This document shows positions 4,853 through 59,495 of a stretch of 64,000 nucleotides of DNA, piece by piece. Position 1 is the first letter of the stretch; each line of letters starts with the position of its first letter. The position numbers were made by a program, and so were the translations under genes. The DNA comes from Candidatus Woesearchaeota archaeon. GTDB lineage: Archaea; Nanobdellota; Nanobdellia; Woesearchaeales; WAPY01. Under the pieces are notes generated by a model that was not told where the DNA came from, did no database searches, and saw only the letters and a list, made by a program, of their open reading frames with translations. Location: positions 1-64,000 of the forward strand of contig JBNAUL010000001.1 of NCBI GenBank assembly GCA_049700835.1, in the 5' to 3' direction.

Positions 4853-5507
4853 TTTCCTCCTTCTTGTTTTTTGCGTTCTTGTTTTGCGATTTCAGATTTG
4901 AACGAGCATAAGCAGTATGGATTGTTGTATAGCTCTTCTTCAGAAGCTCTGAAATTCTTGAGAACCTTAGGTTATGAACATCATGCAAGTACTTTACAAC
5001 ACTTTCAAGAACAGAATATTCTCTTGATGAAATAATCTCAATTGGAATTTCAAAAGAATAATCAGGGGTTAAAGTTTGAGAGAATTTCTTATTAGCCCTT
5101 TGATAGGTTATCCAAACAACTCTTGGATTTCTGTTTAGAATTTTTCCAATTTTAGAATACTTTAAATTTTTGTTTTCTTTCAAGAATTTAACAATCGCTT
5201 CAAAAACAGACAGTTCTTTATTAAAGACAAGAGGAATTTTTGAAATTTCCTCTTTTAATTCCTCTTCAACCCTTTGTCTTGGCTCTTCTTTGATCTTTTC
5301 TTTTTTTTCTAATTCTTTGCCTTTCTCAGATTTTATCTCAGAAATCGCTTCTTTTAAGATTCTTAACAAGTCCTCTTTTGAAAAACTCTTTTTTAAGAAT
5401 TCTTTTAATAGATTAAGAAGGTCTTGATTGTCTTTGTTAAGCCTGCTCTTTTCTTTATTCTCTTCTTTATTATCTTGCGTGCTTCCTTGTTTGTTTTCAT
5501 TGCTCAT
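4842..5507 (-). CDS. Putative transcription regulator with two tandem HTH domains
   Basis: Internal duplication: LSVFEAIVKFLKENKNLKYSKIGKILNRNPRVVWITYQRA and YSVLESVVKYLHDVHNLRFSRISELLKKSYTTIHTAYARS. Confidence 0.7.
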   Translation of the reverse strand: MSNENKQGSTQDNKEENKEKSRLNKDNQDLLNLLKEFLKKSFSKEDLLRILKEAISEIKSEKGKELEKKEKIKEEPRQRVEEELKEEISKIPLVFNKELSVFEAIVKFLKENKNLKYSKIGKILNRNPRVVWITYQRANKKFSQTLTPDYSFEIPIEIISSREYSVLESVVKYLHDVHNLRFSRISELLKKSYTTIHTAYARSNLKSQNKNAKNKKEENAE

Positions 5508-9095: not shown

Positions 9096-11138
9096 CTAAC
9101 TGAGTAGTGCAAATCTCATAATAAGAGGCAGGAAAACCAATGCAACAATTGACATCAACTTTATCAGAATGTTCAACGAAGGCCCTGCAGTATCCTTGAA
9201 AGGATCCCCAACAGTATCTCCTACAACAGATGCTTTGTGAGCATCGCTACCTTTTCCTCCAAAGTGCCCTTCCTCAATGTATTTCTTTGCATTATCCCAA
9301 GCTCCGCCTGAATTAGCCATCAGAATTGCTAAAACAAAACCAGAACTTAAAGATCCTGCCAACAAACCAAAAACAGCTTCAACTCCAAAGATTATTCCAA
9401 CAAAAATTGGAGATATAATTGCCAATAAACTTGGAAGAATCATTTCTTTTTGAGCTGATTTTGTGCTTATGGAAACGCACCTTGCATAGTTTGGCTTGTT
9501 ATTAGTTGTTAGTAACTTCAACTCTTTGAACTGCTTCCTAACTTCTTCAACAATTTGAGAGGCTGCCCTGCCAACTGCTTTCAAAGCCATTGAACTGAAC
9601 AAGAAGGGAAGCATAGAACCGATCATCAAACCAGCAATTAAGGATGAATTTAATAAGCTTAAATTTAAATTTGGAACTAAGGTTTTTAATGTTGCAATCA
9701 AAGCAAGGGCTGTTAGTGCTGCAGAACCGATTGCAAAACCCTTTCCTGTTGCAGCAGTTGTATTTCCAAGAGAATCTAAAGCATCAGTTCTCTTCCTAAC
9801 AATATGTTTTTGATGACTCATCTCTGCAATTCCTCCTGCATTGTCAGCAACAGGACCATAAGCATCTGTTGCCAATGTTATTCCCAAGGTGCTTAGCATT
9901 CCAACAGCAGCCAAGGATATTCCATACAATCCAATATTAAAGTTATTATGGCCTCCTGCCAAATAATAACTCATTATTGTTGAGACAGCAACTATTAAAA
10001 CAGGGATAAAAGTGCTTAGCATTCCAACAGCCAAACCATCAATGATTGTTGTTGCTGCTCCTGTAAGAGAACTCCTTGCAAGTTCCTTAACATGCCTGTA
10101 TTTTGATGATGTATAGTATTCTGTTGTCAATCCTATTAAAACACCAGCAACCAAACCAATCAGCATTGCGTAGAACAAATTGAATGGAATATTTACTTGA
10201 ATCTTAAATATGATGAAGGACAAAAGCGCAACAATTAAAGCAGCAGCGATTATTCCTTTTCTGAGGGCTAACAGCAAAATGTGTTGTTCTGTTTTTTCTC
10301 CTGACCTTACAAAAAAAGTTCCGATTATTGAAGCGATTATTCCGCAGCCAGCGATTCCTAATGGCAACAAAACAGCAGTTGAATTTTTAAAAGCAACAAA
10401 ACCCAAAATCATTGCTGCTATAATGCTTCCCACATAACTTTCGTACAAATCAGCCCCCATTCCAGCAACATCTCCAACATTATCCCCAACATTGTCAGCA
10501 ATGACAGCAGGGTTTCTTGGATCATCCTCTGGAATTCCTGATTCTACCTTTCCAACCAAATCAGCGCCAACATCTGCTGCCTTTGTAAATATTCCGCCGC
10601 CAACCCTTGCAAACAAAGCAACAGAACTTGCTCCCATGCTAAAAGCCAAAAGAGCAGAAGCAGCGTCTCCTAAATTTCCAAATATGTTTGTTAGATAACC
10701 AAAACTCAATGTTATTGCAAACAATGCTAAACCAACAACGCTTAAACCCATAACAGCTCCGCTTGAAAAAGCAACCCTCAATGCCTTGTTTAAACTTGTG
10801 ATTGCAGCATTTGTTGTTCTAACATTAGCCCTTGTTGCTATGCTCATTCCAATAAAGCCCGTAAGTGCTGAGAAAAACCCTCCTAATAAGAATAGAAATG
10901 GGGCTGCAGGACTCATCAATTTATAATAAGATAATAAAAGCATTATAAAAAACATTATTGTAAAGAAGATTGAAATGATAACGTATTGCCTTTTAAGATA
11001 AGCATGTGCTCCTTCCCTTATTGCCTTGGATATTTCCTTCATCCTTTCATTTCCTTCTTCTTGCGTCAAGACAAAATATGCTAAGTATATTGCTAATCCC
11101 AAAGCGCACATAGAAGAGATCAGCGCAAACCAAAACAT
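9096..11138 (-). CDS. hppA: Membrane-bound pyrophosphatase, K+-dependent, probably Na+-translocating
   Basis: [40 protein letters not shown] (Ala form = K+-dependent), [17 protein letters not shown]. Confidence 0.96.
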
Positions 11139-12647: not shown

Positions 12648-14372
12648 CTAAATCTTGTACTGCTTCTGCTTGAAATACTTTGTATGTAAAAGCTCTTCCG
12701 ACTTCTCGCTTAAAGGCCTTTCCAGGAATTCTAAATAGATATCCTTTAATATTGGATTTTCATGGCAAAACCTTATCTTTGATTTTTTATCAATGATATA
12801 GAGCGCTTTCATTCTTTGCTTTATTATATTTTTGTTAGTCGTTAATGGTTGTCCCCCACCGCCAATACAGCCCCCTGGGCAAGCCATTACTTCTAAAAAA
12901 TCAATCTTTAATCTTCCAGATTTTATTTTCTCAAGAATTTTTCTTGCATTTCCAAGTTCATTAACGACTCCAACTCTCAATTCCTTGTTGCCAAGAGTAT
13001 AAGAAGCAATCTTCACTCCCTTAATTCCTCTTATTTCCTTATACTCTATTTTGCTTTCATCATTAATTCCTGTTAGAATAAAACTTGCTGTTCTCAAAGC
13101 AGCTTCCATAACCCCTCCTGTAGTTCCAAAGATTTGACCTGCAGAACTAGCACTCATAAAATCGTCAAAATCTTGTTCTTCAATTTTTTTTAATTCAACT
13201 CCAAACTCCCTAAGCAATTTTCCAATCTCTCTCGTTGTCAGAACAGCATCTATTGGCAATAAATTATTAACCCTTAACTCTGGTCTTAAGACCTCTAATT
13301 TTTTTGCAGTGCAGGGCATTATTGAAACAACAAATATTTTATCTGTATTAATATTATTTTTTTTAGCATAGTATGTCTTTATTAGCGCTCCCAAGATTTC
13401 ATGAGGGCTCTTTGTTGTTGACAAGTTAAGAATAAAATCTGGATAAAACTCCTCTACAAAATTAACCCATGCAGGACAACAGCTGGTAAGCATTGGAAGA
13501 GTTTTGTTGTTGTTAATTCTATCAACTAATTCTGACGCTTCTTCCATTATTGTAAAATCTGCTCCTAAACTTGTGTCAAAGACCTTGTCAAAACCAATTT
13601 GTTTTAGAGCAGAAACAAGTTTTTTTGTCATTATTGTTCCTGGCTTTAAACCAAGTTCTTCTCCAATGCTAACTCTAACAGCAGGGGCTATTTGAGCAAT
13701 AATAATCTTCTCAGGATCTTTTATTGCATCCAAAACCTTTTGTGTTTCATCCTTTTCTATTAAAGCTGCTGTTGGGCAGTGAATAACGCATTGCCCGCAA
13801 CCAACACAAGGGCTTGAAGAAATAGGAATGTCTAGGGCAGTGCTTACAATGGTACTAAAACCTCTTTGCACATAATCAAAAACATTGACTGATTGCTTAT
13901 TGCAAACTTGAATGCATCTTCCGCACAAAATGCACTTTTCAAAATCCTTTACTATTGCATTAGAAGATTCATCTACTTCATGCTTCCTCAATTTTCCAGA
14001 GTATCTTGTTTTGTTAGTTATCTGCTCTGCTATCCTCTGCAAATCGCAGTGAAGATTTCTATAGCAATAATCGCAGTCAAGAGCATGGTTGCTTAGAATC
14101 AATTCTAGATTGTGCCTTCTGTATTCTATAACCTCTTCTGTCTCTGTATTGACCTTCATTCCTTCAGAAACAACTGTATTGCATGAAGTTGTTATCTTTC
14201 CATTAACTTCAACAACGCACAACCTGCAAGTTGCCAACGGTTCTAAGTCCTCGTGAAAACATAAGTGGGGAATGTTAAAACCGAATTCTTCAAGGGCTTT
14301 CAACAAAAACTTTTCTTTTGTAAAATACTCCTTTCCATTGACAATGATTTTTTTTGCTTTTGTTTTTGGCAT
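12648..14372 (-). CDS. hydA: Group A [FeFe]-hydrogenase catalytic subunit (HydA/HndD-like)
   Basis: H-cluster motifs TSCCPAW, MPCTAKKLE and EVMACPGGCIGGGGQP; N-terminal [2Fe-2S], His-ligated [4Fe-4S] (HALDCDYC..NLHC) and 2x[4Fe-4S]. Likely start ATG 14372 (track 14399). Confidence 0.96.
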   Translation of the reverse strand: MPKTKAKKIIVNGKEYFTKEKFLLKALEEFGFNIPHLCFHEDLEPLATCRLCVVEVNGKITTSCNTVVSEGMKVNTETEEVIEYRRHNLELILSNHALDCDYCYRNLHCDLQRIAEQITNKTRYSGKLRKHEVDESSNAIVKDFEKCILCGRCIQVCNKQSVNVFDYVQRGFSTIVSTALDIPISSSPCVGCGQCVIHCPTAALIEKDETQKVLDAIKDPEKIIIAQIAPAVRVSIGEELGLKPGTIMTKKLVSALKQIGFDKVFDTSLGADFTIMEEASELVDRINNNKTLPMLTSCCPAWVNFVEEFYPDFILNLSTTKSPHEILGALIKTYYAKKNNINTDKIFVVSIMPCTAKKLEVLRPELRVNNLLPIDAVLTTREIGKLLREFGVELKKIEEQDFDDFMSASSAGQIFGTTGGVMEAALRTASFILTGINDESKIEYKEIRGIKGVKIASYTLGNKELRVGVVNELGNARKILEKIKSGRLKIDFLEVMACPGGCIGGGGQPLTTNKNIIKQRMKALYIIDKKSKIRFCHENPILKDIYLEFLERPLSEKSEELLHTKYFKQKQYKI

Positions 14373-14376
14373 TCTC

Positions 14377-16137
14377 TCACTTAATCTCTTTCTTCTCAAT
14401 CGCTTTTATAGGACAGGAATTATAGCACATTCCGCACTTAATGCATAAATCTTGATTTATATTGTGAATTTCTCTTGGCTTTCCACTGATTGCTTTTTTA
14501 GGACAAACCTCAAAGCAGATGTGGCAACCAGTGCATTTTTCCTCGTTGATAAAATAATAAAACTTCTTCTGCTCATCGCTAATCTTTTCTTCGTAATCAT
14601 TGAAAAAATGTTTTAAAGATGAAAGCACCAGGTTAGGAGCTGTTTGCCCTAAACCGCAGAGAGATGTTTGTTTTATTGTTATTGCAAGAATGTTCAGATT
14701 TGTCAAGTCGTTAAAATCAGCATTCTTATTGACAATCTTTTCAAGAATTTCAAGCATTCTCATTGTTCCTTCTCTGCAAGGAACACATTGACCGCAACTC
14801 TCGCTCACAATAAACTTCATTCCATAGTAAACTTGCTTTACAATATCCTTTTCCTTGTTCAGCAGAACCATACTTCCAGAACCAATGATAGCATCAACAT
14901 TTTTCACACTATCATAATCAAGTTCTAAATCAACGTTTTCCTTGCTTAGAAACCCTCCTGAAGGCCCTCCAAGCTGCAGTGCTTTAAAATCCTCTTCCTT
15001 TACCCCTGCAATCTTGATTATTGTTGAGAGTTTTGTGCCAAAAGGAATTTCTATGTAGCCTGTTCTCTCTGCATCTCCGCTCAATGAAAACATCTTTGTC
15101 CCAGAGGAATTTTTAGAACCAAAACTCTTGTACCAAGAAGAGCCCTTGTTGATTATTATTGGGATGGTTGCAAGCGTTTCTACATTGTTGATGTTTGTCG
15201 GTTTATTCCATAATCCTCTTTCAGCAGGATAAGGAGGTCTTGGTCTTGGCCTTCCTGGCAAACCTTGAATTGAGTTTATAAGAGCAGTTTCTTCTCCGCA
15301 AACAAAAGCACCAGCCCCTAATCTTAACTCAATATCAACTGAAAAATTACTTGCTAAAATATTCTTTCCTAAAAATCCTTTTTTCCTTGCTTGTTTTAGA
15401 GCAATCTTTAGTCTCTTAACCGCTAAAGGATACTCCATTCTTGTATAAATAAAAGCCTTTTTAACTTTTAATGCATAAGAAGCGATTAGAATTCCTTCTA
15501 TCAAAAGGTGTGGATTGCTTTCAACCAAAACCCTGTTCATGAACGCACCAGGATCACCCTCATCAAAATTGCAAATTAGATACTTTGTTTTTTGTTTTGA
15601 CTTTGACAGGAACTCCCATTTTAATCCTGTTAGAAAACCAGCACCACCTCTTCCCCTAATTCCAGAGTTTTTAACTTCTAAAATAATATCTTCTGGTTCC
15701 ATTGAAAGCGCTTTTTTAAGAGCAGAATATCCTCCAATCTTTATATAGTCATTTATGTCTTCTGGGTCTATTAAACCGCAATGCTCAGAAACAATTTTTG
15801 TTTGGTAAACATAAAACTCATGCTCGTTAATTTCCTTAACATCAAAAATTTTTTTTCCATCATTCCTGCAAGCAAAAATCTTAGTATTCTGCTTGTCATT
15901 GATAATAGAATCAAGGATTGAAGAAACATCTTCTGGTTTAACCTTTGAGAAAATGAGTGTTGCAAAATCATCTTTTTTAATTTCAACAATCGGTTCTTGA
16001 TAACAAAAACCAATACAGCCAACCCTCTTTAATAAAAAGCCTTTTCTGTTCTTAATCTGTTCTTTGAATTCTTCATAAACTTTGAGAGCTCCTGCAGATA
16101 TTCCGCAAGAAGCTAAACCAACACTTATTTCAATCAT
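14377..16137 (-). CDS. hydB: NuoF-like diaphorase subunit of [FeFe]-hydrogenase (HydB)
   Basis: RGRGGAGF, DEGDPGAFMNR, GAFVCGEET, GGPSGG, ESCGQCVPCREG...SLCGLG; C-terminal 2x[4Fe-4S]; N-terminal thioredoxin-like domain. Confidence 0.93.
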   Translation of the reverse strand: MIEISVGLASCGISAGALKVYEEFKEQIKNRKGFLLKRVGCIGFCYQEPIVEIKKDDFATLIFSKVKPEDVSSILDSIINDKQNTKIFACRNDGKKIFDVKEINEHEFYVYQTKIVSEHCGLIDPEDINDYIKIGGYSALKKALSMEPEDIILEVKNSGIRGRGGAGFLTGLKWEFLSKSKQKTKYLICNFDEGDPGAFMNRVLVESNPHLLIEGILIASYALKVKKAFIYTRMEYPLAVKRLKIALKQARKKGFLGKNILASNFSVDIELRLGAGAFVCGEETALINSIQGLPGRPRPRPPYPAERGLWNKPTNINNVETLATIPIIINKGSSWYKSFGSKNSSGTKMFSLSGDAERTGYIEIPFGTKLSTIIKIAGVKEEDFKALQLGGPSGGFLSKENVDLELDYDSVKNVDAIIGSGSMVLLNKEKDIVKQVYYGMKFIVSESCGQCVPCREGTMRMLEILEKIVNKNADFNDLTNLNILAITIKQTSLCGLGQTAPNLVLSSLKHFFNDYEEKISDEQKKFYYFINEEKCTGCHICFEVCPKKAISGKPREIHNINQDLCIKCGMCYNSCPIKAIEKKEIK

Positions 16138-16642
16138 TTTTATTTTCTCTCCTTATCCGCTCAACAGTATTTTTTATAATTTCCTGATTTATCTTTGAGA
16201 TTAGAACTCCATCAACTTCCATAAGAGGCGCTAAACTGCAAGCGCCAAAACAATTAACTGTTTCTAATGTTATAAGCCCGTCCTTAGTTGTTTCTCCTGG
16301 CTCAACATTCAACAATGATTTTATGAAATCAAGATTGTCATAATTCTTTTTAACATAGCATGCTGTTCCTAAGCATAATCTTATCAAATGCTTGCCCCTC
16401 TTCTTTGTTTTTAGTTCATTATAAAATGTAACTGCAGAATAAACCTTGCTAAGAGGAACCTTTAGTTCAGAGCTTATTAACAACATTGATTTTTCAGGAA
16501 TAAAATTAAACTTTTCCTGCAATTCTTCAAGAATCATCAATAAAGGAGTTTTAAATTTCTTATGCTTCTTTATGATTTTAAGAGTTTCTTGAGTTAATTT
16601 CTCATCATTAAATTCCTCAGCTTGTTTGTGTGCTTCCTGCAT
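16130..16642 (-). CDS. hydC: NuoE-like [2Fe-2S] subunit (HydC)
   Basis: VTFY, CLGTAC...CFGACSLAP. Confidence 0.93.
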   Translation of the reverse strand: MQEAHKQAEEFNDEKLTQETLKIIKKHKKFKTPLLMILEELQEKFNFIPEKSMLLISSELKVPLSKVYSAVTFYNELKTKKRGKHLIRLCLGTACYVKKNYDNLDFIKSLLNVEPGETTKDGLITLETVNCFGACSLAPLMEVDGVLISKINQEIIKNTVERIRRENKND

Positions 16643-43859: not shown

Positions 43860-45047
43860 ATGAGGGTTTTTTTAAAAACAGCTCCTGGGCTGGAAAGCAT
43901 AAGTTGTTTGGAAGCCTTTGAACTCGTTGGAAAGAAATTTGAAATTAATGATGGAATCATAACTTCAGATTGCGCTTTCATGGATTTTCTGAAATTGCTT
44001 TTTTACTCAAGGAGTGCAGAAAGGGTTGGGTTAATTGTTGCAGAATTAAAAATCAATAATCTCGTAGAGGGAGAAAAGAATGAGAAGAATAGTAAAGAGG
44101 ACGCTGCTTATGGTAAAATAAGAGAAGTGATTTTCTATAAAGACAAAACCATCGAAAAGATCCTTAATTTTTTAAGAAATTCAAAATCATTTTTCAAGAC
44201 AGAAACGTGTGAGTGTTTTAAAAGAGAGAGCAAAAAAGAGTTCAGAGAATTGCTTAGAAAGGATGTTTCAAATCTTATGATTAACAAAGGCTTTTTGCAG
44301 AATTTAAAGAAACCTGATTTCTATTTCTTTTTATTCAAAATAAAAAATGTTGTGTTGCTTGGGATTGATTTTGGAGAAGTTCATAGGAGAAAATACTCTG
44401 TTTTCAACAATCCTCAAAGCATAAGACACAACATAATCTATTCAGCATTAAGAATTGCTGGTTTTTCAACTAATTTTAAAGGAACTATCATCGATCTTAC
44501 AAGCAAAAGCGATTTTTTGATAGAAGCAATTCTTTATTATAGCAACTCTAAAAACGAGGTAAAGAACATTAACAACAGATTGATTTCTGATTTGGGCAAA
44601 GAAATTGTAGGTAAAGATTTTGAGCATTTCTGCAAAGAAGAAAAAGAGGATAAAAAAGATGAAGATAAAGAAGATAAATACAGCGCAAGCAAAAATAAAA
44701 AAACGAATTTTGTTGCATACAGCAAATACAGGCAGAATTTGAGCGTTTTAAGAAAAAATTCTTTGGTTGCAAATGTTAAAGAAATACTCTTTACAGAAGA
44801 GCATGAAAAAGTTGCTGAGTTTTTAAGCAGCAGCGAAAAAAATATAGTCATTGCTCAGGTAAAGAACTATAAAGAACTCAATGAGCTTAAGGGCTTTTTT
44901 GAATTGCTAAAAAATTCTATCTTAATTATTATATCCAACAATGAGCTTGATTTAAATATTCTTAAAACAGAAAGAACAAAGTATGAAAAACAAAAAATAT
45001 TTCAAGGATTAAACTCATTGTTTTTGCATAAGATTTGTTTTGATTAA
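43860..45047 (+). CDS. THUMP/Trm14-RlmL-like RNA methyltransferase homolog, degenerate catalytic motifs
   Basis: T.PGLE....E N-terminus, LLGIDF..VHRRKYSVFNNPQSI, IEA; no DPMCGSGT or NPPY motif. Confidence 0.6.
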   Translation: MRVFLKTAPGLESISCLEAFELVGKKFEINDGIITSDCAFMDFLKLLFYSRSAERVGLIVAELKINNLVEGEKNEKNSKEDAAYGKIREVIFYKDKTIEKILNFLRNSKSFFKTETCECFKRESKKEFRELLRKDVSNLMINKGFLQNLKKPDFYFFLFKIKNVVLLGIDFGEVHRRKYSVFNNPQSIRHNIIYSALRIAGFSTNFKGTIIDLTSKSDFLIEAILYYSNSKNEVKNINNRLISDLGKEIVGKDFEHFCKEEKEDKKDEDKEDKYSASKNKKTNFVAYSKYRQNLSVLRKNSLVANVKEILFTEEHEKVAEFLSSSEKNIVIAQVKNYKELNELKGFFELLKNSILIIISNNELDLNILKTERTKYEKQKIFQGLNSLFLHKICFD

Positions 45048-45127
45048 AAATTTTTGTTAAAGCAAAATGAAATTAAAATCCTTAAAATTTAAAAAGCATT
45101 ACAATTTAACATTCAGATATATTCAAA

Positions 45128-46630
45128 ATGAAATTCGCAAATTTTGGAAAGCATGGAAAAAAATTCAAAAGAAATTTAATTTCATTCCTTTTTCTAGCAG
45201 CGCTCTTTGTATGCTCTCTCTTTTTAAGGATTTATTTTGCAAGATCAATATACTTTCCTGACGATGGTTCTTATTTCCATCTCAGGCAGATAGCTTATAT
45301 AAGCAAAAAGTTCTTTCCTTTTTTTTACGATGAATTAAGCTATTCAGGAAGAATGGTTGTTATTCTGCCTGTTTTTGATTACATAATGGCTATGCTAAAC
45401 AAGTTTATTCCTGAAAAAATAAATTATTTTTATACAACAAAAATAATTTCATCTCTAATATGCGTAGTTGTTTTTTTAATAACCAAAAGCTTTTTTAGGA
45501 ATAACTCTGCAGCGCTCTTTTCAGCTACAGGAGTTTGTTTTTTGCCTTTGCTTTTTGGAGAAACTCTGCATTCAGCAACTCCGCTCTCATTTACAATAAT
45601 ACTTATGCTGCTGCTTACATACTCTTTTATAAGAATTAAGAAGAGAGAGAGCCTGCTTCCCTACATAGCGTTCTTTTTAAGCGCTCTCTTTACTTCCACT
45701 CTTACTCTTGTTTTCATAGTTGGAATTTGGATATTTTTAATCTTTTCCTACACTGAAAATCTTGAAAACAAGAACAGATATTTTGAACTCGGTGTTTTCT
45801 CAACATCATTAGCAATATGGACTTATTTGATTGTATTTAAAGAGGCGTTAAGTATTAACGGTGCTGCTGTGTTCTGGCAAGGAATGCCTGAGCTGTTTGC
45901 CAGGAATGCTCTTTCAAGTTTAAACATTAGAATAATAACTTATTCAATCGGTTCTGTCTCTTTTTTAGCAGGGCTTTACATAATCACTAAATACTTATTC
46001 AAGAAGAAGAATGACTTCTTCTACATTGCATTCAGCATTGTTTTGGCAAGCATTTTGCTGATTTTTTTAAACCTAATATCTGTAAAGAACGGCCTGATAA
46101 TAATAGGCATAAACATAAGCATGCTCTCAGGATTTTTTGTCCTTGAATTCCAAGAGTTTATCAAAAAGACAAATTTTGCAAAACTTAAAAATTTCATGCT
46201 TTTTTTTATTTTTGGGGTTTTGATTCTAAACAATATTTTGCTGTGCATTAGTTACTCAAATGAAAACATAAAAAACTTTCCAGGCAGAGAAGAGGTAATG
46301 GCCATGGAATACCTAAAGGAAAACAGCGAAAAGGATTCAGCAGTGCTTTCCAAGATAAAATATGGAAATTTGATAACTTATTATGCTAAAAGAAAGAATG
46401 TGATTGACAACAATTTCCTGCTTGTTAATGATGCGCAGACAAGATACTACGATGTTGAAAGGTTCTACAAAACAATCTATGCTGTTGATGCAATAAAGAT
46501 AATGAACAAGTACAATGCAAAATACTTTATAGTTGACAACGAAATACCAAAATACCTGAATGATGAGGAGTGTTTCAAATTGATTTACAACAATACAATC
46601 AAGGTATACAAACTTTCTTGCACAGTTTAG
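45128..46630 (+). CDS. GT-C/STT3-like polytopic membrane protein
   Basis: D.SYFHLRQ, YDELSYSGR, ~12 TM segments; C-terminal VLS...YG..ITYYA.RK and KY.AKY domain. Confidence 0.65.
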   Translation: MKFANFGKHGKKFKRNLISFLFLAALFVCSLFLRIYFARSIYFPDDGSYFHLRQIAYISKKFFPFFYDELSYSGRMVVILPVFDYIMAMLNKFIPEKINYFYTTKIISSLICVVVFLITKSFFRNNSAALFSATGVCFLPLLFGETLHSATPLSFTIILMLLLTYSFIRIKKRESLLPYIAFFLSALFTSTLTLVFIVGIWIFLIFSYTENLENKNRYFELGVFSTSLAIWTYLIVFKEALSINGAAVFWQGMPELFARNALSSLNIRIITYSIGSVSFLAGLYIITKYLFKKKNDFFYIAFSIVLASILLIFLNLISVKNGLIIIGINISMLSGFFVLEFQEFIKKTNFAKLKNFMLFFIFGVLILNNILLCISYSNENIKNFPGREEVMAMEYLKENSEKDSAVLSKIKYGNLITYYAKRKNVIDNNFLLVNDAQTRYYDVERFYKTIYAVDAIKIMNKYNAKYFIVDNEIPKYLNDEECFKLIYNNTIKVYKLSCTV

Positions 46631-46638
46631 GTGGTCTC

Positions 46639-48060
46639 ATGAGCATAAAAAAGTTTTTAAAAAAACAAAGAAATTTTTTTATCATGCTGTGCACAGCAGC
46701 AGTATTCTTATTCTTTCCAGGACTAATCAGAGTGCTTTTTTATGAAAATATTTCTGGAGGAACAACAAACTATAAGGATATAATGCTTGCTTCAAGAATT
46801 TTTTCAGGAGATTTTTCAAACTATGCCATAGAAAAATCAGCATTAATAAATCCATACTATATTTTTCTGAATTTCCTTCTGAGGTTTCTAAATCCGCTCT
46901 TTTTAATGAACTTTTTATCCCCAATTTTTGGATTTCTGTTTATAATAGTTTTGCATGCTCTCCTAAAAAGAGTTGGGGTTGAGAAAGAGAGTTTGTTTGC
47001 AGCAATGCTCATGCTAATTCTTTCAGCGCCTTTCATCTACAATTTTACAATCATCAATGAAAACTCTTTTGTTCTGTTTTTTTTGGCTTTAGGAATGCTC
47101 TTGTTCCTTGCAGAAAACAAGATAAGTTCTGTGTTAGGACTCTTGATTCTTATAATAATCTCTTTTGGCAACCTAATAGCTTCAATAGTAAGCTATTCCT
47201 TGCTCATTCTTTTTTTGATACACCGCTCTTCAATTTTCGCCTACAGAACAGAAAAGAGAAAAAGAATAATCTTTACGATAAGTTCAATATTCTTAATTTT
47301 AATGCTATTAAACATTTATCTAACTAAATGGAATATTATAAATGAAAACAAGGGAATTTTAACATACTTTTCAGAGATAACAATGTCAAATGGGTTCAAC
47401 ACCATAATACTGATTTTGGCATTGATAGGTTTTTTAACAATAGGCAATGAGAGAAAACTGCTAAAAAATGTTTTTTGGATTGCGCTTTTGCTCTTCATTG
47501 TCTTTGGTTCAAACTTTATAGTTTATGCAAACATAGTTTTCTGCATTTCCGCAGCGTACGGGTTTGTTTGGGTTACAGAGAGAAAGTGGGAGTTAAAAAA
47601 ACTGAAGTATTGGAGCATTCTTCTGATCGTATGCGGAATATTCTTTATTGCGATGAGTATCGACCTTAAAATTGCAAATCAGAGGCCTGACTCGAGCGAT
47701 ATTGATGCTTTAAACGCATTAAAGGAACTAAAAGAAGGATTTGTTCTTTCTCATCAGAATTATGGATTTTGGATTGAATATTTCTCCAACAAAAAATCCT
47801 TCATAAACAATTTAAATATAAATCTAATTAAGGATGAGGCATCTCTGCTCTTTTACAGTTACAACCTTTCCCTATCATACAATTTAATAAAAGAATACAA
47901 TATAAGGTATGTGTTCATAACCCCTGAAATGAAAACAGGTCTGGTTTGGAATAAGGATGACGAAGGGCTCTTGTTCTTGATGAAAAACAGCAACAGATTC
48001 AAGAATTTGTATAAAAAAAACAATTACGAAATTTGGGAGGTTTTGGATGAACAGGGTTGA
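46639..48060 (+). CDS. GT-C/STT3-like polytopic membrane protein (paralog of upstream gene)
   Basis: AGGTGG RBS before ATG 46639; many TM segments; C-terminal VLSH..YGFWIEYFS.KK and YNIRYVFI. Confidence 0.65.
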   Translation: MSIKKFLKKQRNFFIMLCTAAVFLFFPGLIRVLFYENISGGTTNYKDIMLASRIFSGDFSNYAIEKSALINPYYIFLNFLLRFLNPLFLMNFLSPIFGFLFIIVLHALLKRVGVEKESLFAAMLMLILSAPFIYNFTIINENSFVLFFLALGMLLFLAENKISSVLGLLILIIISFGNLIASIVSYSLLILFLIHRSSIFAYRTEKRKRIIFTISSIFLILMLLNIYLTKWNIINENKGILTYFSEITMSNGFNTIILILALIGFLTIGNERKLLKNVFWIALLLFIVFGSNFIVYANIVFCISAAYGFVWVTERKWELKKLKYWSILLIVCGIFFIAMSIDLKIANQRPDSSDIDALNALKELKEGFVLSHQNYGFWIEYFSNKKSFINNLNINLIKDEASLLFYSYNLSLSYNLIKEYNIRYVFITPEMKTGLVWNKDDEGLLFLMKNSNRFKNLYKKNNYEIWEVLDEQG

Positions 48061-52693: not shown

Positions 52694-53350
52694 TTAAATA
52701 TTTTTTCTAAGATTTATTCTTCCTGAAAAAAACGATATCAAAAGGTAAAATGCTATCAAAAGCCCTGCAAAAATCAAGAGTTCTTTGCTGATTTTAAAAA
52801 AGCGCGTTGCTAGCGTTGCTCCTCTGCTAAAGCTGCTCAATACTTCTGCTTGCTCAGAACCTGACTTAAGGGCTTGAACTGGTGCTTGGACAGTACTAAC
52901 GCTGCTTACAAATTCCTGCTTTAAGTTTTGGGCGGTTTTGCTGAAAAAATTTAAGTTCAAATATTCTATGAATTCAAGAGAGATAAAGGAGAGCAGCGCT
53001 GCTGTCAAAATTTTTGAAAACTCCTTAACCAAAGAGCGCTCTTCTATTCTGTGCGCAAATATCACATACTGCTTTGAAACAGAATAATGATTTATCTCCT
53101 TTCCTTTCTTGCTGTAATGGTATTCCTGCACTTCTATTAAACCTGAATTCAGCAATTTTTTCACATTGTAATGGACTGTTGACAATGGAAGTTTGAGTTC
53201 TTCAGCAATTCCTGATTCTGTCAATGTTTTGCTCGAAAGCAGTTTAAGTATGCTCCTCGATGTTTTGTTGCTTATAACCTCTGCAACTTTTGAAATCCTT
53301 TCATCATCAAGCGAAAGCAGCAAAAATTGTTTGTCCTGAATTTTGTTCAT
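52694..53350 (-). CDS. ArsR-type wHTH regulator with C-terminal TM segments
   Basis: SR.IL.LL....LTES.IA.EL..PLSTV.Y....L...GL, YS.KG; hydrophobic C-terminal segments. Likely ATG 53350 (track 53446). Confidence 0.75.
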   Translation of the reverse strand: MNKIQDKQFLLLSLDDERISKVAEVISNKTSRSILKLLSSKTLTESGIAEELKLPLSTVHYNVKKLLNSGLIEVQEYHYSKKGKEINHYSVSKQYVIFAHRIEERSLVKEFSKILTAALLSFISLEFIEYLNLNFFSKTAQNLKQEFVSSVSTVQAPVQALKSGSEQAEVLSSFSRGATLATRFFKISKELLIFAGLLIAFYLLISFFSGRINLRKNI

Positions 53351-53463
53351 AGTTTTGCGTAATGCTTCATTATTTAAAAAATATTTGTTTTGTTTTAAAA
53401 AGAATTCAAAAAACAAAGGAGAAAGGGAAAATTTAAAAACAGGCAAACAACAAATTTTATCTG

Positions 53464-54437: not shown

Positions 54438-56147
54438 ATGAAACTATTCCAAATAATAAAAAAGAACATAAGGATACTTGTAAAATCAAAATCAACTTTG
54501 CTCACAATGATTTTAGGCCCTCTATTGGTAATGTTTCTCCTTGGGCTTGCTTTTGACAATGCAAACATATACAGAATAAACATTGGAGTTTACTTCAATG
54601 AAAAGAATAACCTGACCGAATCCTTTGTGGACAAACTTGAAACAAAGTTCAGGGTTGTGGAATATGAAAACCCTGAAAAGTGCATTGAAAGCATAAAACT
54701 TGAGACAATAAACACATGCATTATTTTTCCTGAAAACATGAGCATAGAAGAAAACAAAACAAACGAAGTTCAGTTCTATGTTGATTACTCTAAAATAAAC
54801 CTTGTTTGGATGATTAGGGATGTAATAATGAGCAGTTTAGAGGAGAGAAGCGAGGAGATAACCCAAGATTTAACAAACCAACTGCTTGAAAAGATTGAAA
54901 GAATTGAAAAAGAGGTCAAGGAAAAGCAGCCAATTCTTATAGAAATGACAACCATAAACAACCTGCTGAGCGAGAATGCAAAGAGCGTGCAGGCAAAATT
55001 GAATGAATTGGATGTAAGTTTCAATCCAAGTTCTTTCAAAGCCAGCGAAATAAAAGAACAGATTGCAAAGTTAAAGACATTGAGTTCTGATTCAATAGGC
55101 AGCTCCAACGACACCTTAAACTACATAAAATCCGTTGTTTCCTCTTCCAATCTTTCCTCATCTGAGAAGAATTCAATCAACAACAAAATTTTGGAAGCAC
55201 AAGATGAGTTGAGCAATATAAAGTCAGCGGTAAATAACATTTACAATAATGAAAATTCTGGAGAGCTTAACATCTTGATGAGCAACCTTGCTTCAAGGAT
55301 CTCTGAAGTTGAGAAAAAGTTTGAAGCAATCAACAAAACCCTGCAGAATGCAAGCAAGAGCTTGGATTACTCAAAAACCAAACTTTCAGAGGGGCTTTTA
55401 GGAATAATAAAATTGCAAGAAGGTTTCAACAACATAAACAAGGAAATAAGAAGCATAGAAATAAGAAGTGCTGAAAAGATAGTCAAACCAATAACAATAA
55501 CAATAAAACCGCTGAGTTATAAAAAGACCCATTTAAATTTTCTGTTCCCAACATTGGTAACAATAGTTTTAATGTTTGTAAGCATAATGCTGAGCTCTCT
55601 GATGGTTGTCATTGAAAAGAACTCTCCTGCATACTTTAGAAATTGCATAAGTCCTACGCACCAAAGCCTGTTCTCAATAGCAACTATAATAACAACTATT
55701 TTGGTTGTGATGCCACAATTCCTTATTCTGTTCTGCATAGCAATGATTTATGTAAAAACAGAGTTGATAGCAAGTTTTTGGAGTTCATTTGCAATAGCTC
55801 TTCTAAGCATAATTGTTTTCACATTAATAGGAATGCTTATTGCCCAATTCTTTAAAAGAGAAGAAACTGCAATGGTTGCTGCGCTCATAATTAGCACTCT
55901 ATTCTTGTTTTTATCTAACACCATAATTCCAATTGAAAGCATGAACATAGTTCTTGCGAAGATAGCAAACTACAGCCCCTTTGTCATTTCAGAATTTCTC
56001 TTCAGGCACAGCTTGATATTCCAAACAAAACTCATTAATGTTTTATTTCAGTTAGAAATTCTCTGTTTATACATACTTATTCTGTTTGCAGTTGTGCTGG
56101 CAAAGGACTTTGCTTTTAATAGAAACCATAAGAAGATAAAAACATAA
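54438..56147 (+). CDS. ABC-2 type permease with large extracellular coiled-coil domain
   Basis: N-terminal TM, ~330-aa extracellular helical region, 5 C-terminal TM segments, S..I.P.E.M motif. Confidence 0.85.
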   Translation: MKLFQIIKKNIRILVKSKSTLLTMILGPLLVMFLLGLAFDNANIYRINIGVYFNEKNNLTESFVDKLETKFRVVEYENPEKCIESIKLETINTCIIFPENMSIEENKTNEVQFYVDYSKINLVWMIRDVIMSSLEERSEEITQDLTNQLLEKIERIEKEVKEKQPILIEMTTINNLLSENAKSVQAKLNELDVSFNPSSFKASEIKEQIAKLKTLSSDSIGSSNDTLNYIKSVVSSSNLSSSEKNSINNKILEAQDELSNIKSAVNNIYNNENSGELNILMSNLASRISEVEKKFEAINKTLQNASKSLDYSKTKLSEGLLGIIKLQEGFNNINKEIRSIEIRSAEKIVKPITITIKPLSYKKTHLNFLFPTLVTIVLMFVSIMLSSLMVVIEKNSPAYFRNCISPTHQSLFSIATIITTILVVMPQFLILFCIAMIYVKTELIASFWSSFAIALLSIIVFTLIGMLIAQFFKREETAMVAALIISTLFLFLSNTIIPIESMNIVLAKIANYSPFVISEFLFRHSLIFQTKLINVLFQLEILCLYILILFAVVLAKDFAFNRNHKKIKT

Positions 56148-57232
56148 AACATAATTAAAACAAAAAAAATTTTGGGTTAATTTTCTTAGTGGTTATAAAG
56201 CAAAAGTGTTAAGAAGCGTACATGTTAAGAACAGTTCTGCTAAAAATAAGAAACTCCAACAACAGTGATTTTACAACAAAATGAAAAAATAAAAAACAAC
56301 AAAGAAAACAACAAAGAGAAAAGATAATAATTATGATGTCAAAACAAGATGCTTGGATAGGCATAAGATTTAACGAAAATATTCAACAGAAACAGCAAAA
56401 GCAGTTCTTAAAGACCATATAATATAGAATAAGGATGAACGAGGATGAACGCACTTAAGAAAAATTCATTTATAAATTAAAATTTAGATTTATCAGCAAA
56501 TGATTATAGAATTATGGGCACCATAATCTTTGGCGTTTTAAAAGTTTTTGGTTTATTTTTGCATAAAAATTCACTTTTTGAATATAAAAACATATAAAAA
56601 CTATTTTTATTAACTTTTTATTAAATATTTAAACAGCAAAATCAATAAAAATGTAATTTTTTGTTGATTTTTTGCGATTTTTGTTGCAATTTTCGTGTTT
56701 TAAAGTAAACAAAGCAAATCTTATAGAAAACTCTCACTTTTTATGAATAAAAATCTTATTATTGTTGGCTAAACTTTATTAAAAATACGTATTTTAAAAA
56801 TTATCAAAAATATCATTAAAAATCTCTAAATCCCTGGTTTAAAACTCATAAAACAATAACAAAAAGTGAGAAAACTAAGATTATTGCATTCTGTTGAGAT
56901 TCTTGTACTTAACAGGGACTTAACAAGGCTTAACAGAGTTTTAGAACAAAATTCTGTATAAAAAATCCAAAATGCAATTTTTAACATAAAATTGTTTTGT
57001 GATATGTATTTTATTTAACAACAATTGTATTTATTATTTATTAATATATCTTTTAAAATTATTATTATAAAATATAATAGTTGCATTTGGTTGCTCTGAT
57101 TTTAAGTAATTATTAAAAAGTAAATAAAATAAAATTGTTTGTTCAGTTTGTTTAATCAAGTTGCGCAAAGGTGTTTTTTTCAACAAATCTTTTTTAAAAT
57201 TCTTTTTATATTTTGTTTTTTTCGCGCTTAAA

Positions 57233-57303
57233 ATCATGTCCTGATGTGTCCTTGTCATGTCCCGATCATGTCCCGATCATGTCCTTTTTTCAGGACATGT
57301 CCT
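57233..57303. repeat. Iteron-like array A: five phased ATCATGTCC-type units plus palindrome AGGACATGTCCT
   Basis: TGTCC cores at 57237, 57247, 57258, 57269 and 57280; perfect 12-bp palindrome at 57292-57303. Confidence 0.9.
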
Positions 57304-57347
57304 TAAAAAACAAAGGACAAAAACAGCAAAAGAAGAAATTTCTTTTT

Positions 57348-58109
57348 TTATCTTCCTGAAATCTTTAATTTCATTTCTTCTGTAAGATAAAATGCCTTTT
57401 CTTTTGAAGAAACAAGTTTGTCATTTATACCAAAACCCTTCTTCCTAAGTTCGTAAATTGAATTCCTTATTGTTTTTTCTTCTCTGCCCAACATCCTCGA
57501 CAAATCCGCATATGTCAATGGAGAATCTGATTCATATAAAATTTTTAGCAAGCTCTTTTCTGTTACTGAAAGTTCATTTTCATCGCGAAATTCTGCAATT
57601 CTTTTTTTAACAACAAAATTCTTTGATTTTTTGAGTTCCCTATCAAAAAATTCTTTTTCAAACAAGAAAACCCTGTCTTTTCTCACGTCCTGATATGTCC
57701 CAATCATGTCCCGATCATGTCCCGACATGTCCTTATCATGTCCTGACGCGTCCTTTTTTTTGGAAAGCTCTGATTTTATTGCTTCAAACAACTCTCTTAT
57801 GTCATTGTGAACTTTTTTGATTTCAGCTATTTCATATTCCAAGCCCCTTTTCTCTTCAGATATTTTTAATGATGAAACATTGCTTTCAAGAAGAGCTGTC
57901 TTTTTCTCAATTTCATTCAACCTTGAAACAAGAGAATCTAGTCTTTTGTTCTGCTCATCAACCAAAACCCTTATTTCGGCATGTTCTGATTCGTTCTTTA
58001 GAATCTTTGCATTAAAGAAATCTATCCAAAGTTTTACATTAAAAAACTCTGCCTTTATTTTTAAAAATGCTGCTTTTAGGGCTTGATTTATGTTTTCTAA
58101 GCTTGGCAT
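57348..58109 (-). CDS. Coiled-coil plus C-terminal winged-helix DNA-binding protein of unknown function
   Basis: N-terminal coiled coil; C-terminal LS.TEK.LL.ILY....LTY.DL...LG....TIRN.I..LR.KG plus beta wing. Likely ATG 58109 (track 58160). Confidence 0.75.
   Translation of the reverse strand: MPSLENINQALKAAFLKIKAEFFNVKLWIDFFNAKILKNESEHAEIRVLVDEQNKRLDSLVSRLNEIEKKTALLESNVSSLKISEEKRGLEYEIAEIKKVHNDIRELFEAIKSELSKKKDASGHDKDMSGHDRDMIGTYQDVRKDRVFLFEKEFFDRELKKSKNFVVKKRIAEFRDENELSVTEKSLLKILYESDSPLTYADLSRMLGREEKTIRNSIYELRKKGFGINDKLVSSKEKAFYLTEEMKLKISGR
57684..57753. repeat. Iteron-like array B, inside the wHTH gene: seven phased units
   Basis: YGTCC cores at 57686, 57696, 57707, 57718, 57728, 57739 and 57749 (mean spacing 10.5 bp). 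Confidence 0.9.
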
Positions 58110-58430
58110 AATCAAAAAATAAACGCTTAGATTTAAAATCTTTTTGTTTTTTAAAATCATTTTTGGGCACCATAAATTTATTGATTTTGCAGTTTGTTTA
58201 TGAAAAGTGAGAGTTGGCTATTATGTTTTTTGGATTTATAATAAAAGTTTACTGAATATACTGCTGAATATACTAATAAACAATAAAAATAATAATGCAA
58301 AATACATTTTTGAAAACATATCTTATTTTACATTTTTGGTTTATTTTTTATTTTTGTCAAAAAACCGTTTAAATATGGTTTAAATATGGTTTTAATAAGC
58401 TTTATAAATAAAGAAATAATAGATTTTTTT

Positions 58431-59495
58431 ATGAAACATATCAGCAGTTATGAACTGATGAGACTTATTGAAGAAATGGAATTTTTAATAGGTAAAAGGC
58501 TTGAAAAGGCGTTTCAGGAGAACAGCGAACTCTTTTTGAGATTTGACACAAAACCAAAAACAACCGTTAGAATAAGCATTCCAAATTTCATATACATTAC
58601 AAAAAATTCTCCAAAGTCCTTTATTGGAATCTCAAAGATGATAAGGAGCTTATTCTCCAATCATAAACTTGCATCCATGAGACAGCACAATTTTGACAGA
58701 TTGGTAGAGTTTGATTTCAGCAGCAGAAAGATTTTCATAGAATTGTTTGATAAAGGAAACATAGTCCTGTGCGATGAAAATAATAAGATAATTGGATTTC
58801 TGAGAAGCGAAAACATGAATAGAAGTATAAAGAACGGGCAGAAGTATTCTGCTCCTGAAAAAATAGATCCCTTCTCTATAAGCAAAAAAGAATTTGCAGA
58901 ATTGTTTAACAATAAAAATAAGGAGCTTGTAAAGTTCATTGCATCTGAACTCGGATTTGGGGGGGTTTATGCTGAGGAAATATGCCTTAACTCAGGAATA
59001 AACAAAAACAAGAAATTCTTAAGCGAAGAGGAATGCGAACTCATTTTAAAAATAATTCATGAAATAAAAAATAAAGAAAAAAAGCCTTCAATTGTATATG
59101 AGAACAATCATCCTATAGATGTTGTCCCAATTGAATTAAAGTTCTATTCTGGTAAAGAACACATTCTGTTTGAAAATTACTCTTCTGCATTGGAAGAATT
59201 CTGCAAAATCACGCAAAAGCGGGTTGTTGATAAGGAAGAAGAAAAAATTTTAAAAGCATTGGAAATGCAGAAGCGTGGAATTGAAAACATAATTAAAGAA
59301 CAAAGAGAGATTGAATTGATAGTCAGTTTGATTTATCAAAACTTTCAAAATATAAATAATTTCTTTGAAAAGATTAGAAAAATAATTAAAGAACCAACAA
59401 ATAATAATGAAAAGGAAGAAAAAATCAAATCCCTGAAGAAATTTAAGGTTCATGAAATAAATTTCAAGGAAAAATTCGTTGTTTTGGAGTTATAA
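58431..59495 (+). CDS. rqcH: NFACT/RqcH-family protein, short form (NFACT-N + HhH + coiled coil)
   Basis: QHNFDRLV.F, IELF..GNIVL.D, LGFGGVYAEEIC..SG; no NFACT-R region. Likely ATG 58431. Confidence 0.8.
   Translation: MKHISSYELMRLIEEMEFLIGKRLEKAFQENSELFLRFDTKPKTTVRISIPNFIYITKNSPKSFIGISKMIRSLFSNHKLASMRQHNFDRLVEFDFSSRKIFIELFDKGNIVLCDENNKIIGFLRSENMNRSIKNGQKYSAPEKIDPFSISKKEFAELFNNKNKELVKFIASELGFGGVYAEEICLNSGINKNKKFLSEEECELILKIIHEIKNKEKKPSIVYENNHPIDVVPIELKFYSGKEHILFENYSSALEEFCKITQKRVVDKEEEKILKALEMQKRGIENIIKEQREIELIVSLIYQNFQNINNFFEKIRKIIKEPTNNNEKEEKIKSLKKFKVHEINFKEKFVVLEL

Follow-up and report, generated by a model that had tools for sequence, protein, structure and literature searches.

What is the function of a gene that carries, within its own reading frame and again just behind it, the same short DNA word repeated once per helical turn? 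This question is raised by a gene, here called the array gene, that resides in a stretch of 64,000 nt from a Candidatus Woesearchaeota archaeon (assembly GCA_049700835.1, contig JBNAUL010000001.1, positions 1-64,000). The whole stretch is referred to as the window. It is AT-rich, archaeal in character and encodes the ribosomal proteins L34e, L19e, L32e and S4e. A first-pass annotation, made from the letters alone, had described the arrays and suggested that the encoded winged-helix protein binds them, either as an origin of replication or as a site for chromosome segregation. The closest relatives of the array gene are found in Candidatus Woesearchaeota assemblies. When species-representative genomes were scanned with an alignment of the protein family, three further loci (L001, L002 and L003) were obtained from independent Woesearchaeota assemblies, so that DNA from four loci, all of one word class (GGACAT), could be compared. 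As laid out below, the locus can be regarded as a probable self-binding site-array module.

Two phased arrays of one DNA word

The elements at the centre of the locus are (positions within the window):

57348..58109, minus strand: the array gene, encoding a 253-aa protein with an N-terminal helical hairpin, a disordered linker and a C-terminal winged helix-turn-helix
57684..57753, minus strand: in-gene array of seven direct units of the GGAC(A/G) type, which encodes the disordered linker (residues about 119-141)
57235..57284, minus strand: after-stop array of five direct units, oriented like those of the in-gene array
57292..57303, no strand assigned: perfect 12-bp palindrome made of two inverted GGACA half-sites, which leads the after-stop direct repeats by 18 bp core to core
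57315..57321, plus strand: lone GGACAAA half-site in reverse orientation, between the stop codon and the palindrome

The in-gene cores, given by the highest coordinate of each on the minus strand, lie at 57690, 57700, 57711, 57722, 57732, 57743 and 57753. Their spacings are 10, 11, 11, 10, 11 and 10 bp by rising coordinate and 10, 11, 10, 11, 11 and 10 bp in the order of the coding strand. The after-stop cores at 57241, 57251, 57262, 57273 and 57284 are 10, 11, 11 and 11 bp apart (11, 11, 11 and 10 bp in coding-strand order), and these units are found 46-115 bp past the stop codon (57348-57350). In full agreement with the first-pass annotation, our recount returned exactly its seven in-gene units and confirmed the five units beyond the stop codon, all with the same spacings, as well as the perfect palindrome. 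An A-rich spacer separates the palindrome from the five direct units that follow it. The lone GGACAAA half-site has a counterpart in L001 at position 4808, 19 bp ahead of the L001 palindrome. Tandem Repeats Finder assigned a period of 11 to both arrays and, in the in-gene array, also a period of 21, corresponding to seven codons. In a repeat search, the far ends of the two arrays proved 88% identical over 43 nt.

The word GGACATG has 11 matches in the 64 kb, where 2.60 are expected and none of 100 shuffles reaches 11. Ten of the matches fall within the arrays and a single further one is located in the remaining ~62 kb of the window. A second array of this word does not occur elsewhere in the window, just as had been noted before. 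The palindrome is the only match of GGACNNGTCC in the window (0.05 expected; at least one match in 4 of 100 shuffles). ATGTCC is not enriched overall, with 21 occurrences versus 15.4 expected; 11 of the 21 are inside the arrays.

A winged-helix protein with an array-encoded linker

A longer open reading frame from 58160 is also listed for the array gene. The start of the gene was placed at 58109, since in L001 the corresponding ATG is immediately preceded by an in-frame TAA. An AlphaFold2 model calculated from 62 family sequences (mean predicted local distance difference test score, pLDDT, of 84) shows two long helices, residues 4-82 and 85-121, which form a hairpin spanning residues 4-121. 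Residues 122-141, the array-encoded segment, have pLDDT values below 50 and are followed by a low-confidence helix and then by a winged helix (residues 182-251) with three helices, a two-strand wing and pLDDT values above 90. The earlier description of the repeat-encoded peptide as a linker between a coiled coil and a winged helix-turn-helix is borne out by the model, in which the encoded residues 123-141 connect the helical hairpin with the winged helix. Prediction of a two-copy complex for residues 1-121 gave a score of 0.15 versus a mark of 0.42, which provides no evidence either way on pairing.

Only HTH_11 (C-terminal, 27.2 bits versus a cut-off of 25) and HTH_24 were detected by Pfam. 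A Foldseek comparison with the PDB matched the winged helix to MarR/MepR, SlyA, AbfR2 (Lrs14 type), SmtB/HlyU and many viral winged helices. These matches cover residues about 170-250, with a root mean square deviation (rmsd) of 2.8 over 80 columns for AbfR2 and 2.2 over 77 columns for SlyA. One of these generic matches, at rank 16 (E = 3e-3, rmsd 2.2 over 77 columns), is TubR from a C. botulinum phage. NCBIfam models for Lrs14 (17.6 versus 90), Csa3 (18.9 versus 60.2) and Sta1 (17.3 versus 80) stayed below their cut-offs, the PADLOC match to CARF3/CasR (1.4e-8) concerns the winged-helix part alone, and no whole-protein match to the MarR, ArsR, Lrs14 or Csa3 families was found above cut-off. 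A sequence search of the PDB returned generic helix-turn-helix and coiled-coil matches only. Twelve longer family members that were scanned showed winged-helix-type Pfam matches or none, and no extra domain. Look-alike clusters in the ESM Atlas consist of unnamed or HTH_11-annotated proteins, mostly from Nanobdellota. The window contains one other helix-turn-helix gene (52694-53446), which at E = 0.52 does not qualify as a paralogue.

Upstream of the array gene one further element was recognized:

58131..58138, minus strand: TATA-like box ~25 nt upstream of the start codon, likely the promoter of a leaderless or near-leaderless mRNA

This TATA-like block is conserved between the window and L001. 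Not a single GGACA unit is present from the start codon to the upstream gene. A scan for sigma-70-type promoters and terminators, the model of which is unsuited to archaea, reported no terminator-like site.

The layout is conserved in related loci

The array proteins of L001, L002 and L003 share 64%, 34% and 34% identity, respectively, with that of the window. All four loci have an in-gene GGACATG array on the coding strand of the linker DNA. In L001 and L002, the module after the stop codon is also the same, with the inverted pair first (at 4827 in L001 and 4738 in L002, the position of the palindrome in the window) and five to six direct units behind it, while the contig of L003 ends inside the gene, before the stop codon. 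Taken together, the four loci contain 47 units, and 33 of the 40 spacings measure 10 or 11 bp. Colinear DNA similarity between the window and L001 (74% identity) extends from 58215, ~100 bp ahead of the gene, to 57226, shortly behind the after-stop array. Since the similarity ends there, the conserved unit includes the after-stop array but none of the DNA that follows. The first-pass annotation had considered that the after-stop array could be an assembly duplication. This concern can be dismissed, because the two independent assemblies of L001 and L002 share the layout of in-gene and after-stop arrays.

Constraint on the repeat at the DNA level

No segment of the gene is better conserved than the linker, synonymous sites included, even though protein identity drops to 34%. 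Between L002 and L003, 22 of 24 residues are identical in the array as opposed to 54 of 144 outside, and identical residues are specified by the same codon in 19 of 19 cases within the array versus 28 of 53 outside (p = 1.2e-4). The corresponding same-codon counts are 11 of 12 versus 28 of 68 for L001 and L002 (p = 1.3e-3) and 10 of 12 versus 32 of 67 for the window and L002 (p = 0.029); for the window and L001 the difference is not significant (11 of 13 versus 89 of 149, p = 0.13). As the spacing of 10-11 nt is not a multiple of three, the word falls into different frames, and one and the same DNA word is read in turn as G-H-x, x-D-M and G-T-x. Furthermore, the array word recurs in non-coding DNA past the stop codon. 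The repeat is constrained at the level of DNA and not at that of the peptide. Here, synonymous-site conservation, reading in several frames and the non-coding copies all agree with what the first-pass annotation had stated. The locus shows how a single piece of DNA can obey two constraints in nature: the word is placed in all three frames, and the disordered linker absorbs the cost.

The opposite explanation would be a peptide repeat without any DNA role, arising from slippage-prone low-complexity coding, with the after-stop copy being a decaying duplicate or an assembly artefact. The 21-bp (seven-residue) period of the in-gene array and the conservation of the peptide would fit. This explanation is hardly tenable, however, in view of a DNA word that is read in two or three frames at a spacing that is no multiple of three, conserved synonymous sites, a non-coding array that is kept in L001 and L002 when the DNA beyond it is not, the agreement of independent assemblies and the predicted disorder of the peptide.

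Three other ideas were set aside because they found no support. In the first, the gene would acquire or lose a single 10-11-bp unit and thereby undergo phase variation; in the second, recombination between the two arrays would remove the DNA that encodes the winged helix; in the third, the protein would bind mRNA instead of DNA. With regard to the last of these, phasing by one turn favours double-stranded DNA as the target.

The array word follows the recognition helix

A profile search of 1.84 billion representative proteins yielded 334 family members at E ≤0.001, 138 at 1e-10 and 25 at 1e-30. Among 155 stored proteins, 86 were analysed, namely those with the recognition helix no more than 70 residues from the C-terminus and a length of at least 150 residues; the other 69 were omitted. 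The test worked on the proteins alone and asked by back-translation, position by position, whether a given DNA word was compatible with the possible codons. In the class with the recognition helix x-K-[ST]-[IV]-R-N (n = 41), chains of at least three GGACA-compatible positions at a spacing of 10-12 nt were present in 37 and chains of at least four in 32 proteins, whereas 2 of 820 shuffles reached three and none reached four. All three reading frames are used by 25 of the 32 longer chains. Successive GGACA-compatible positions were 10 or 11 nt apart 133 times in this class, compared with 2.9 times in shuffles (maximum 6), and an unbiased scan of all 5-mers placed GGACA first (133 versus 3.5).

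The class N-Y-S-T-V-K-N (n = 7) uses a different word. Here, a TGACA/GTGAC chain of at least three units was detected in five of the seven proteins versus 0 of 140 shuffles, while a GGACA chain of at least three was seen in one and of at least four in none. Conversely, a TGACA chain of at least three occurs in just one of the 41 proteins of the x-K-[ST]-[IV]-R-N class. Altogether, an in-gene array was detected in 42 of the 86 analysable members, about half. Because the array word differs by recognition-helix class, the constraint acts on DNA and tracks the helix that reads DNA. Because the gene itself contains the site, protein sequences suffice to deduce the specificity code. Two side results of the back-translation were discarded: GAACA, a candidate third word in the class N-Y-G-T-V-K-N, is an artefact of the recognition-helix peptide itself, and a free 7-mer scan was too noisy, with equal counts in shuffles, so that the spacing-based tests were used instead.

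The match between helix and word lends good support to the earlier proposal that the protein binds these arrays, and we consider it very probable that it occupies both of them at its own locus. Alternatively, the link to the gene could be purely positional, and the arrays could be bound by a different protein or could, like Tus-Ter and RTP-Ter, act as a polar barrier against replication forks or transcription. It would speak for this that all units of both arrays share one direction, that the conserved non-coding words TCTCACTTTT and ATGGTGCCCA (see below) show further factors to act at the locus, and that bacterial terminator proteins have sites beside their own genes. We know of no archaeal Ter system, though, and if another protein read the arrays it would be hard to explain why the word follows the recognition helix of the array protein itself. 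An unrelated binder or a barrier therefore has little chance of being correct.

Surroundings of the array gene

On one side of the array gene, all four loci have a divergently transcribed gene for an NFACT_N protein. On the other side, genes for an ABC ATPase, an ABC-2 permease and a UPF0047 protein are found in the three loci that reach that far, L003 covering the NFACT_N side only. This conserved neighbourhood indicates that the array gene is vertically inherited, chromosomal and not visibly mobile. An 11-nt tandem duplication, GTTTAAATATG (2.8 copies, 95% matches, 58367-58397), spans the NFACT_N start codon at 58386.

The non-coding features around the gene are:

56148..57347, no strand: non-coding gap of 1.2 kb between convergent genes, with 15-28% G+C per 100 nt up to 57199
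57000..57199, no strand: tract with an extremely high AT content (15-19% G+C), next to the after-stop array on its far side
58165..58212, minus strand: two-part non-coding element upstream of the array gene, consisting of a 10-nt TCTCACTTTT box, a variable spacer and ATGGTGCCCA
56732-56740, minus strand, and 56863-56871, plus strand: further word copies in the gap, AAAGTGAGA
56516-56524, minus strand: further word copy in the gap, ATGGTGCCC

The gap is at odds with an otherwise compact genome and contains no conserved open reading frame. A tRNA scan and Rfam at gathering scores gave no match in the whole window, and Rfam at E ≤1 over 56100-58450 gave a chance microRNA match only, so the gap is explained by no known RNA. 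L001 has a comparable gap of 1.1 kb, which shares only two islands of similarity with that of the window. In L002, a gene for an AAA_18 kinase takes the place of the AT-rich gap; tblastn detected no kinase remnant in the gap of the window or of L001.

TCTCACTTTT and ATGGTGCCCA are invariant in all five aligned copies from the four loci, although the proteins are down to 34% identity; the spacer varies. These GC-richer words occur in the 64-kb window solely around the array gene, and the boxes come in inverted pairs. Their coordinates are 3896-3944, 5228-5236, 5316-5324 and 5580-5588 in L001, 3865-3895 and 5423-5454 in L002 and 3880-3911 in L003. One composite is situated upstream of the gene in the four loci. 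A second is found on the far side, inverted in L002 and spread out in the window and L001. The copies in the L001 gap have the same order and orientation as in the window and form islands inside an otherwise unconserved gap.

Three further repeats were observed here. A second, unrelated 11-bp phased repeat with the unit ACTTAACAGGG (2.8 copies, 56907-56936) is present in the gap and was not seen in the L001 sequence. The gap also contains an exact tandem pair of the 10-mer AGGATGAACG at 56432-56451. An isolated perfect GGACATGTCC palindrome is located in L002 at 4889-4898, ~75 bp past the after-stop array and shortly beyond the predicted end of the convergent kinase reading frame (4847).

Possible functions of the array complex

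Binding, cooperativity, bridging, roadblock and cellular role are steps that we infer, and they can be put together as follows. The winged helix would read (A/G)GGACA(T)G, with its own locus as the main target and the sole one within the window. The protein may nucleate on the palindrome, a strong inverted-pair site, from where cooperative loading would spread over the weaker phased direct repeats along a single face of the double helix. Oligomerisation would fall to the N-terminal hairpin, which may also bridge the two arrays and thereby loop ~450 bp. The direct effect would be self-limitation, with bound protein as a roadblock within the reading frame and downstream of it, and it is because the promoter region has no unit that self-regulation would have to take this form. 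As the only visible targets of the protein sit in its own gene, the nucleoprotein complex itself would have to be the functional product, possibly one landmark on the chromosome, comparable to a centromere or segrosome such as ParR-parC and TubR-tubC. The complexes of this kind that are known comprise origins, centromeres and barriers.

If the roadblock were the whole story, the array protein would be an ordinary winged-helix regulator that sets its own level by blocking RNA polymerase and has its real regulon elsewhere. Its winged helix is indeed of the transcription-regulator type, the in-gene position would give an elongation roadblock, and the 64 kb examined are part of a contig of ~492 kb, so further targets may exist. 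Nevertheless, 12-14 phased sites in two blocks are far above the needs of an operator, the promoter has no site, the remaining ~62 kb contain one other GGACATG, and sites within the frame come at a cost but persist in 37 of 41 class representatives. Pure self-regulation appears quite unlikely for these reasons, and even so it would represent an unusual regulatory design.

The best explanation in our view is a self-binding protein whose complex serves as a centromere-like landmark, an explanation which, taken as a whole, comes near to an even chance without reaching it. The centromere-like role taken by itself is possible, if doubtful. It is favoured because the layout in two blocks with one-turn phasing is that of parC and tubC, the winged helix belongs to a regulator or adaptor type, the gene is located on the chromosome with conserved synteny, and Orc1/Cdc6 is near-universal in the phylum.

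Several findings weigh against such a role. Genes for a ParA, ParM or TubZ motor are found neither beside the array gene nor among the 65 open reading frames of the window covered by the domain scans, and known plasmid partition cassettes keep motor and adaptor together. The arrays lie away from the promoter, unlike parC and tubC. An origin would account no less well for the AT-rich tract that the window and L001 have next to the array. No in-gene array was found in the class N-Y-G-T-V-K-N (n = 23) or in the class of other helices (n = 15), which make up 38 of the 86 analysed proteins, so the arrangement is not universal in the wider family. Flanking arrays were compared in loci of the GGACAT class, the one class with DNA. 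The covariation test across homologues that the first-pass annotation had suggested gave a positive result, in that the in-gene word follows the helix; flanking arrays are present in L001 and L002.

An iteron-type origin has to be weighed at this point. In this case the protein would act as an initiator or accessory factor, the arrays would be its iterons, the palindrome would bind a dimer, and the AT-rich DNA would unwind, giving a second, Orc1-independent origin. The combination of direct repeats with an inverted pair of the same half-site is in line with this. Sites in linker-coding DNA recall ori-lambda in gene O as described in excerpts of PMC7466680. The after-stop array adjoins a stretch of 15-19% G+C within the 1.2-kb gap, to which the 1.1-kb gap of L001 corresponds, and the ribosomal-protein operon is transcribed away from the site, as noted in the first-pass annotation. 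Several points speak against it. The available text of a preprint (10.64898/2026.05.13.725050) reports ORC1/Cdc6 in 206 of 208 complete Nanobdellota genomes, so that the Cdc6-independent origin of the first-pass annotation is not needed and a Cdc6-independent primary origin is unlikely. Pfam, Foldseek and profile libraries disclosed no resemblance to RepA, lambda O, Orc1/Cdc6 or WhiP; the best fold and profile matches are MarR, ArsR, Lrs14 and Csa3, not the Rep and WhiP initiators to which the first-pass annotation had pointed. Homologues are absent from 72,556 plasmid and 50,697 phage records. The units are one turn apart instead of two, and the AT-rich gap is missing in L002, where the kinase gene follows the array; both points weaken the iteron reading put forward before.

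No replication gene is located nearby. Specifically, no Cdc6/ORC domain was detected in the 65 window reading frames or in the 17 scanned neighbours of L001-L003, and the earlier statement that no cdc6, parA or integrase gene is adjacent extends to all 65. The G/C counts at four-fold sites (156/174 to the left and 65/56 to the right) show no significant switch, with little sequence on the right. Because the motor gene is missing and, of the three loci with sequence behind the stop codon, two have the AT-rich tract, we keep the second origin alive as an unlikely alternative.

Put more generally, the array genes may constitute a Nanobdellota-specific family that carries its own cis-site in frame, with the linker and after-stop arrays forming either a segregation centromere or an Orc1-independent second replicator. 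This is a tentative statement, more doubtful than probable. If it were true, it would provide the first sequence-defined centromere or non-Orc1 replicator for DPANN archaea, and site and recognition helix would co-evolve as an inseparable unit. Should the complex prove to act as a centromere or an origin, it would be a new entry among archaeal chromosome-maintenance systems. Chromosome segregation and organisation in DPANN archaea with their very small genomes are essentially unknown territory, and apart from the presumed Orc1 origin, we found no sequence-defined cis-acting DPANN chromosomal site in the literature searched. The array locus provides a testable pair of a protein and a word of 5-7 bp.

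Other genes of the window

Three genes at 12648-16642 encode an [FeFe]-hydrogenase large subunit with a small-subunit domain, a NuoF-like flavoprotein (Complex1_51K) and a thioredoxin-like 2Fe-2S ferredoxin. This composition suggests a hydrogenase of the HydABC type, which is possibly electron-bifurcating. A membrane H+-pyrophosphatase is encoded at 9096-11138. Large open reading frames without a Pfam match at E ≤1e-4 comprise one of 1075 aa at 1625-4852 and three of 395, 500 and 496 aa at 43860-48060, the latter two of which overlap by ~60 nt.

Comparison with known systems

The array locus is a member of none of the families with which it was compared, each of which departs from it in at least one tested defining feature. 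A published description of the family or of the arrangement was not found in the literature outside subscription journals, and papers containing the palindrome word GGACNNGTCC dealt with unrelated subjects among the matches listed.

Lrs14/AbfR2, Csa3/CasR, MarR and ArsR/SmtB proteins are the best fold and profile matches at the winged helix, but they have neither the 120-residue helical hairpin nor an array-encoded linker. To our knowledge, no Lrs14, Csa3, MarR or ArsR regulator has a phased array of sites in its own reading frame. In plasmid P1, iteron repeats (incC and incA) are present on both sides of the rep gene, and in Rep operators inverted half-iterons bind dimers and direct repeats monomers. 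Spo0J/ParB has a parS site within its own gene, for which our literature search turned up no confirming paper, and Sulfolobus WhiP is a winged-helix initiator at the archaeal origin oriC3. Searches of the PDB, of plasmids and of folds revealed no homology of the array protein to any of these three systems.

Iterons usually span two turns, and those of lambda are ~19 bp long. The lambda O gene resembles the array gene in harbouring the binding sites of its product at a central position, beside an AT-rich tract. It differs in that there are 4-6 iterons, no second array past the stop codon and a phage replicon, whereas the array locus has 10-11-bp units and is chromosomal and syntenic; a relation in sequence or fold does not exist between the two proteins. 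As far as the excerpts of PMC7466680 go, the O-protein sites of ori-lambda are located mid-gene with the AT-rich tract adjoining, and in related phages added iterons lengthen O in a part that is judged to be free of DNA contact.

TubR-tubC shares with the array locus direct repeats in blocks and an adaptor that appears among the winged-helix fold matches, a match no better than dozens of others. It deviates in the position of tubC upstream of tubR over the promoter and in the adjacent TubZ. In the excerpts of PMC6009700, the tubC direct repeats are split into blocks, and the complex represses transcription and acts as a centromere.

ParR-parC, finally, has parC on both flanks of the promoter and the ParM motor in the operon, whereas the array locus has a winged-helix protein, arrays in and after the frame and no motor nearby. 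ParR is a ribbon-helix-helix protein. For plasmid R1, excerpts of PMC2241845, the text of which contains '11 bp', describe parC as two separate sets of five-fold short iterons, with cooperative binding by an adaptor whose gene is adjacent. It is this design, with short phased direct repeats grouped into two blocks close to the adaptor gene, that the array locus shares with ParR-parC.

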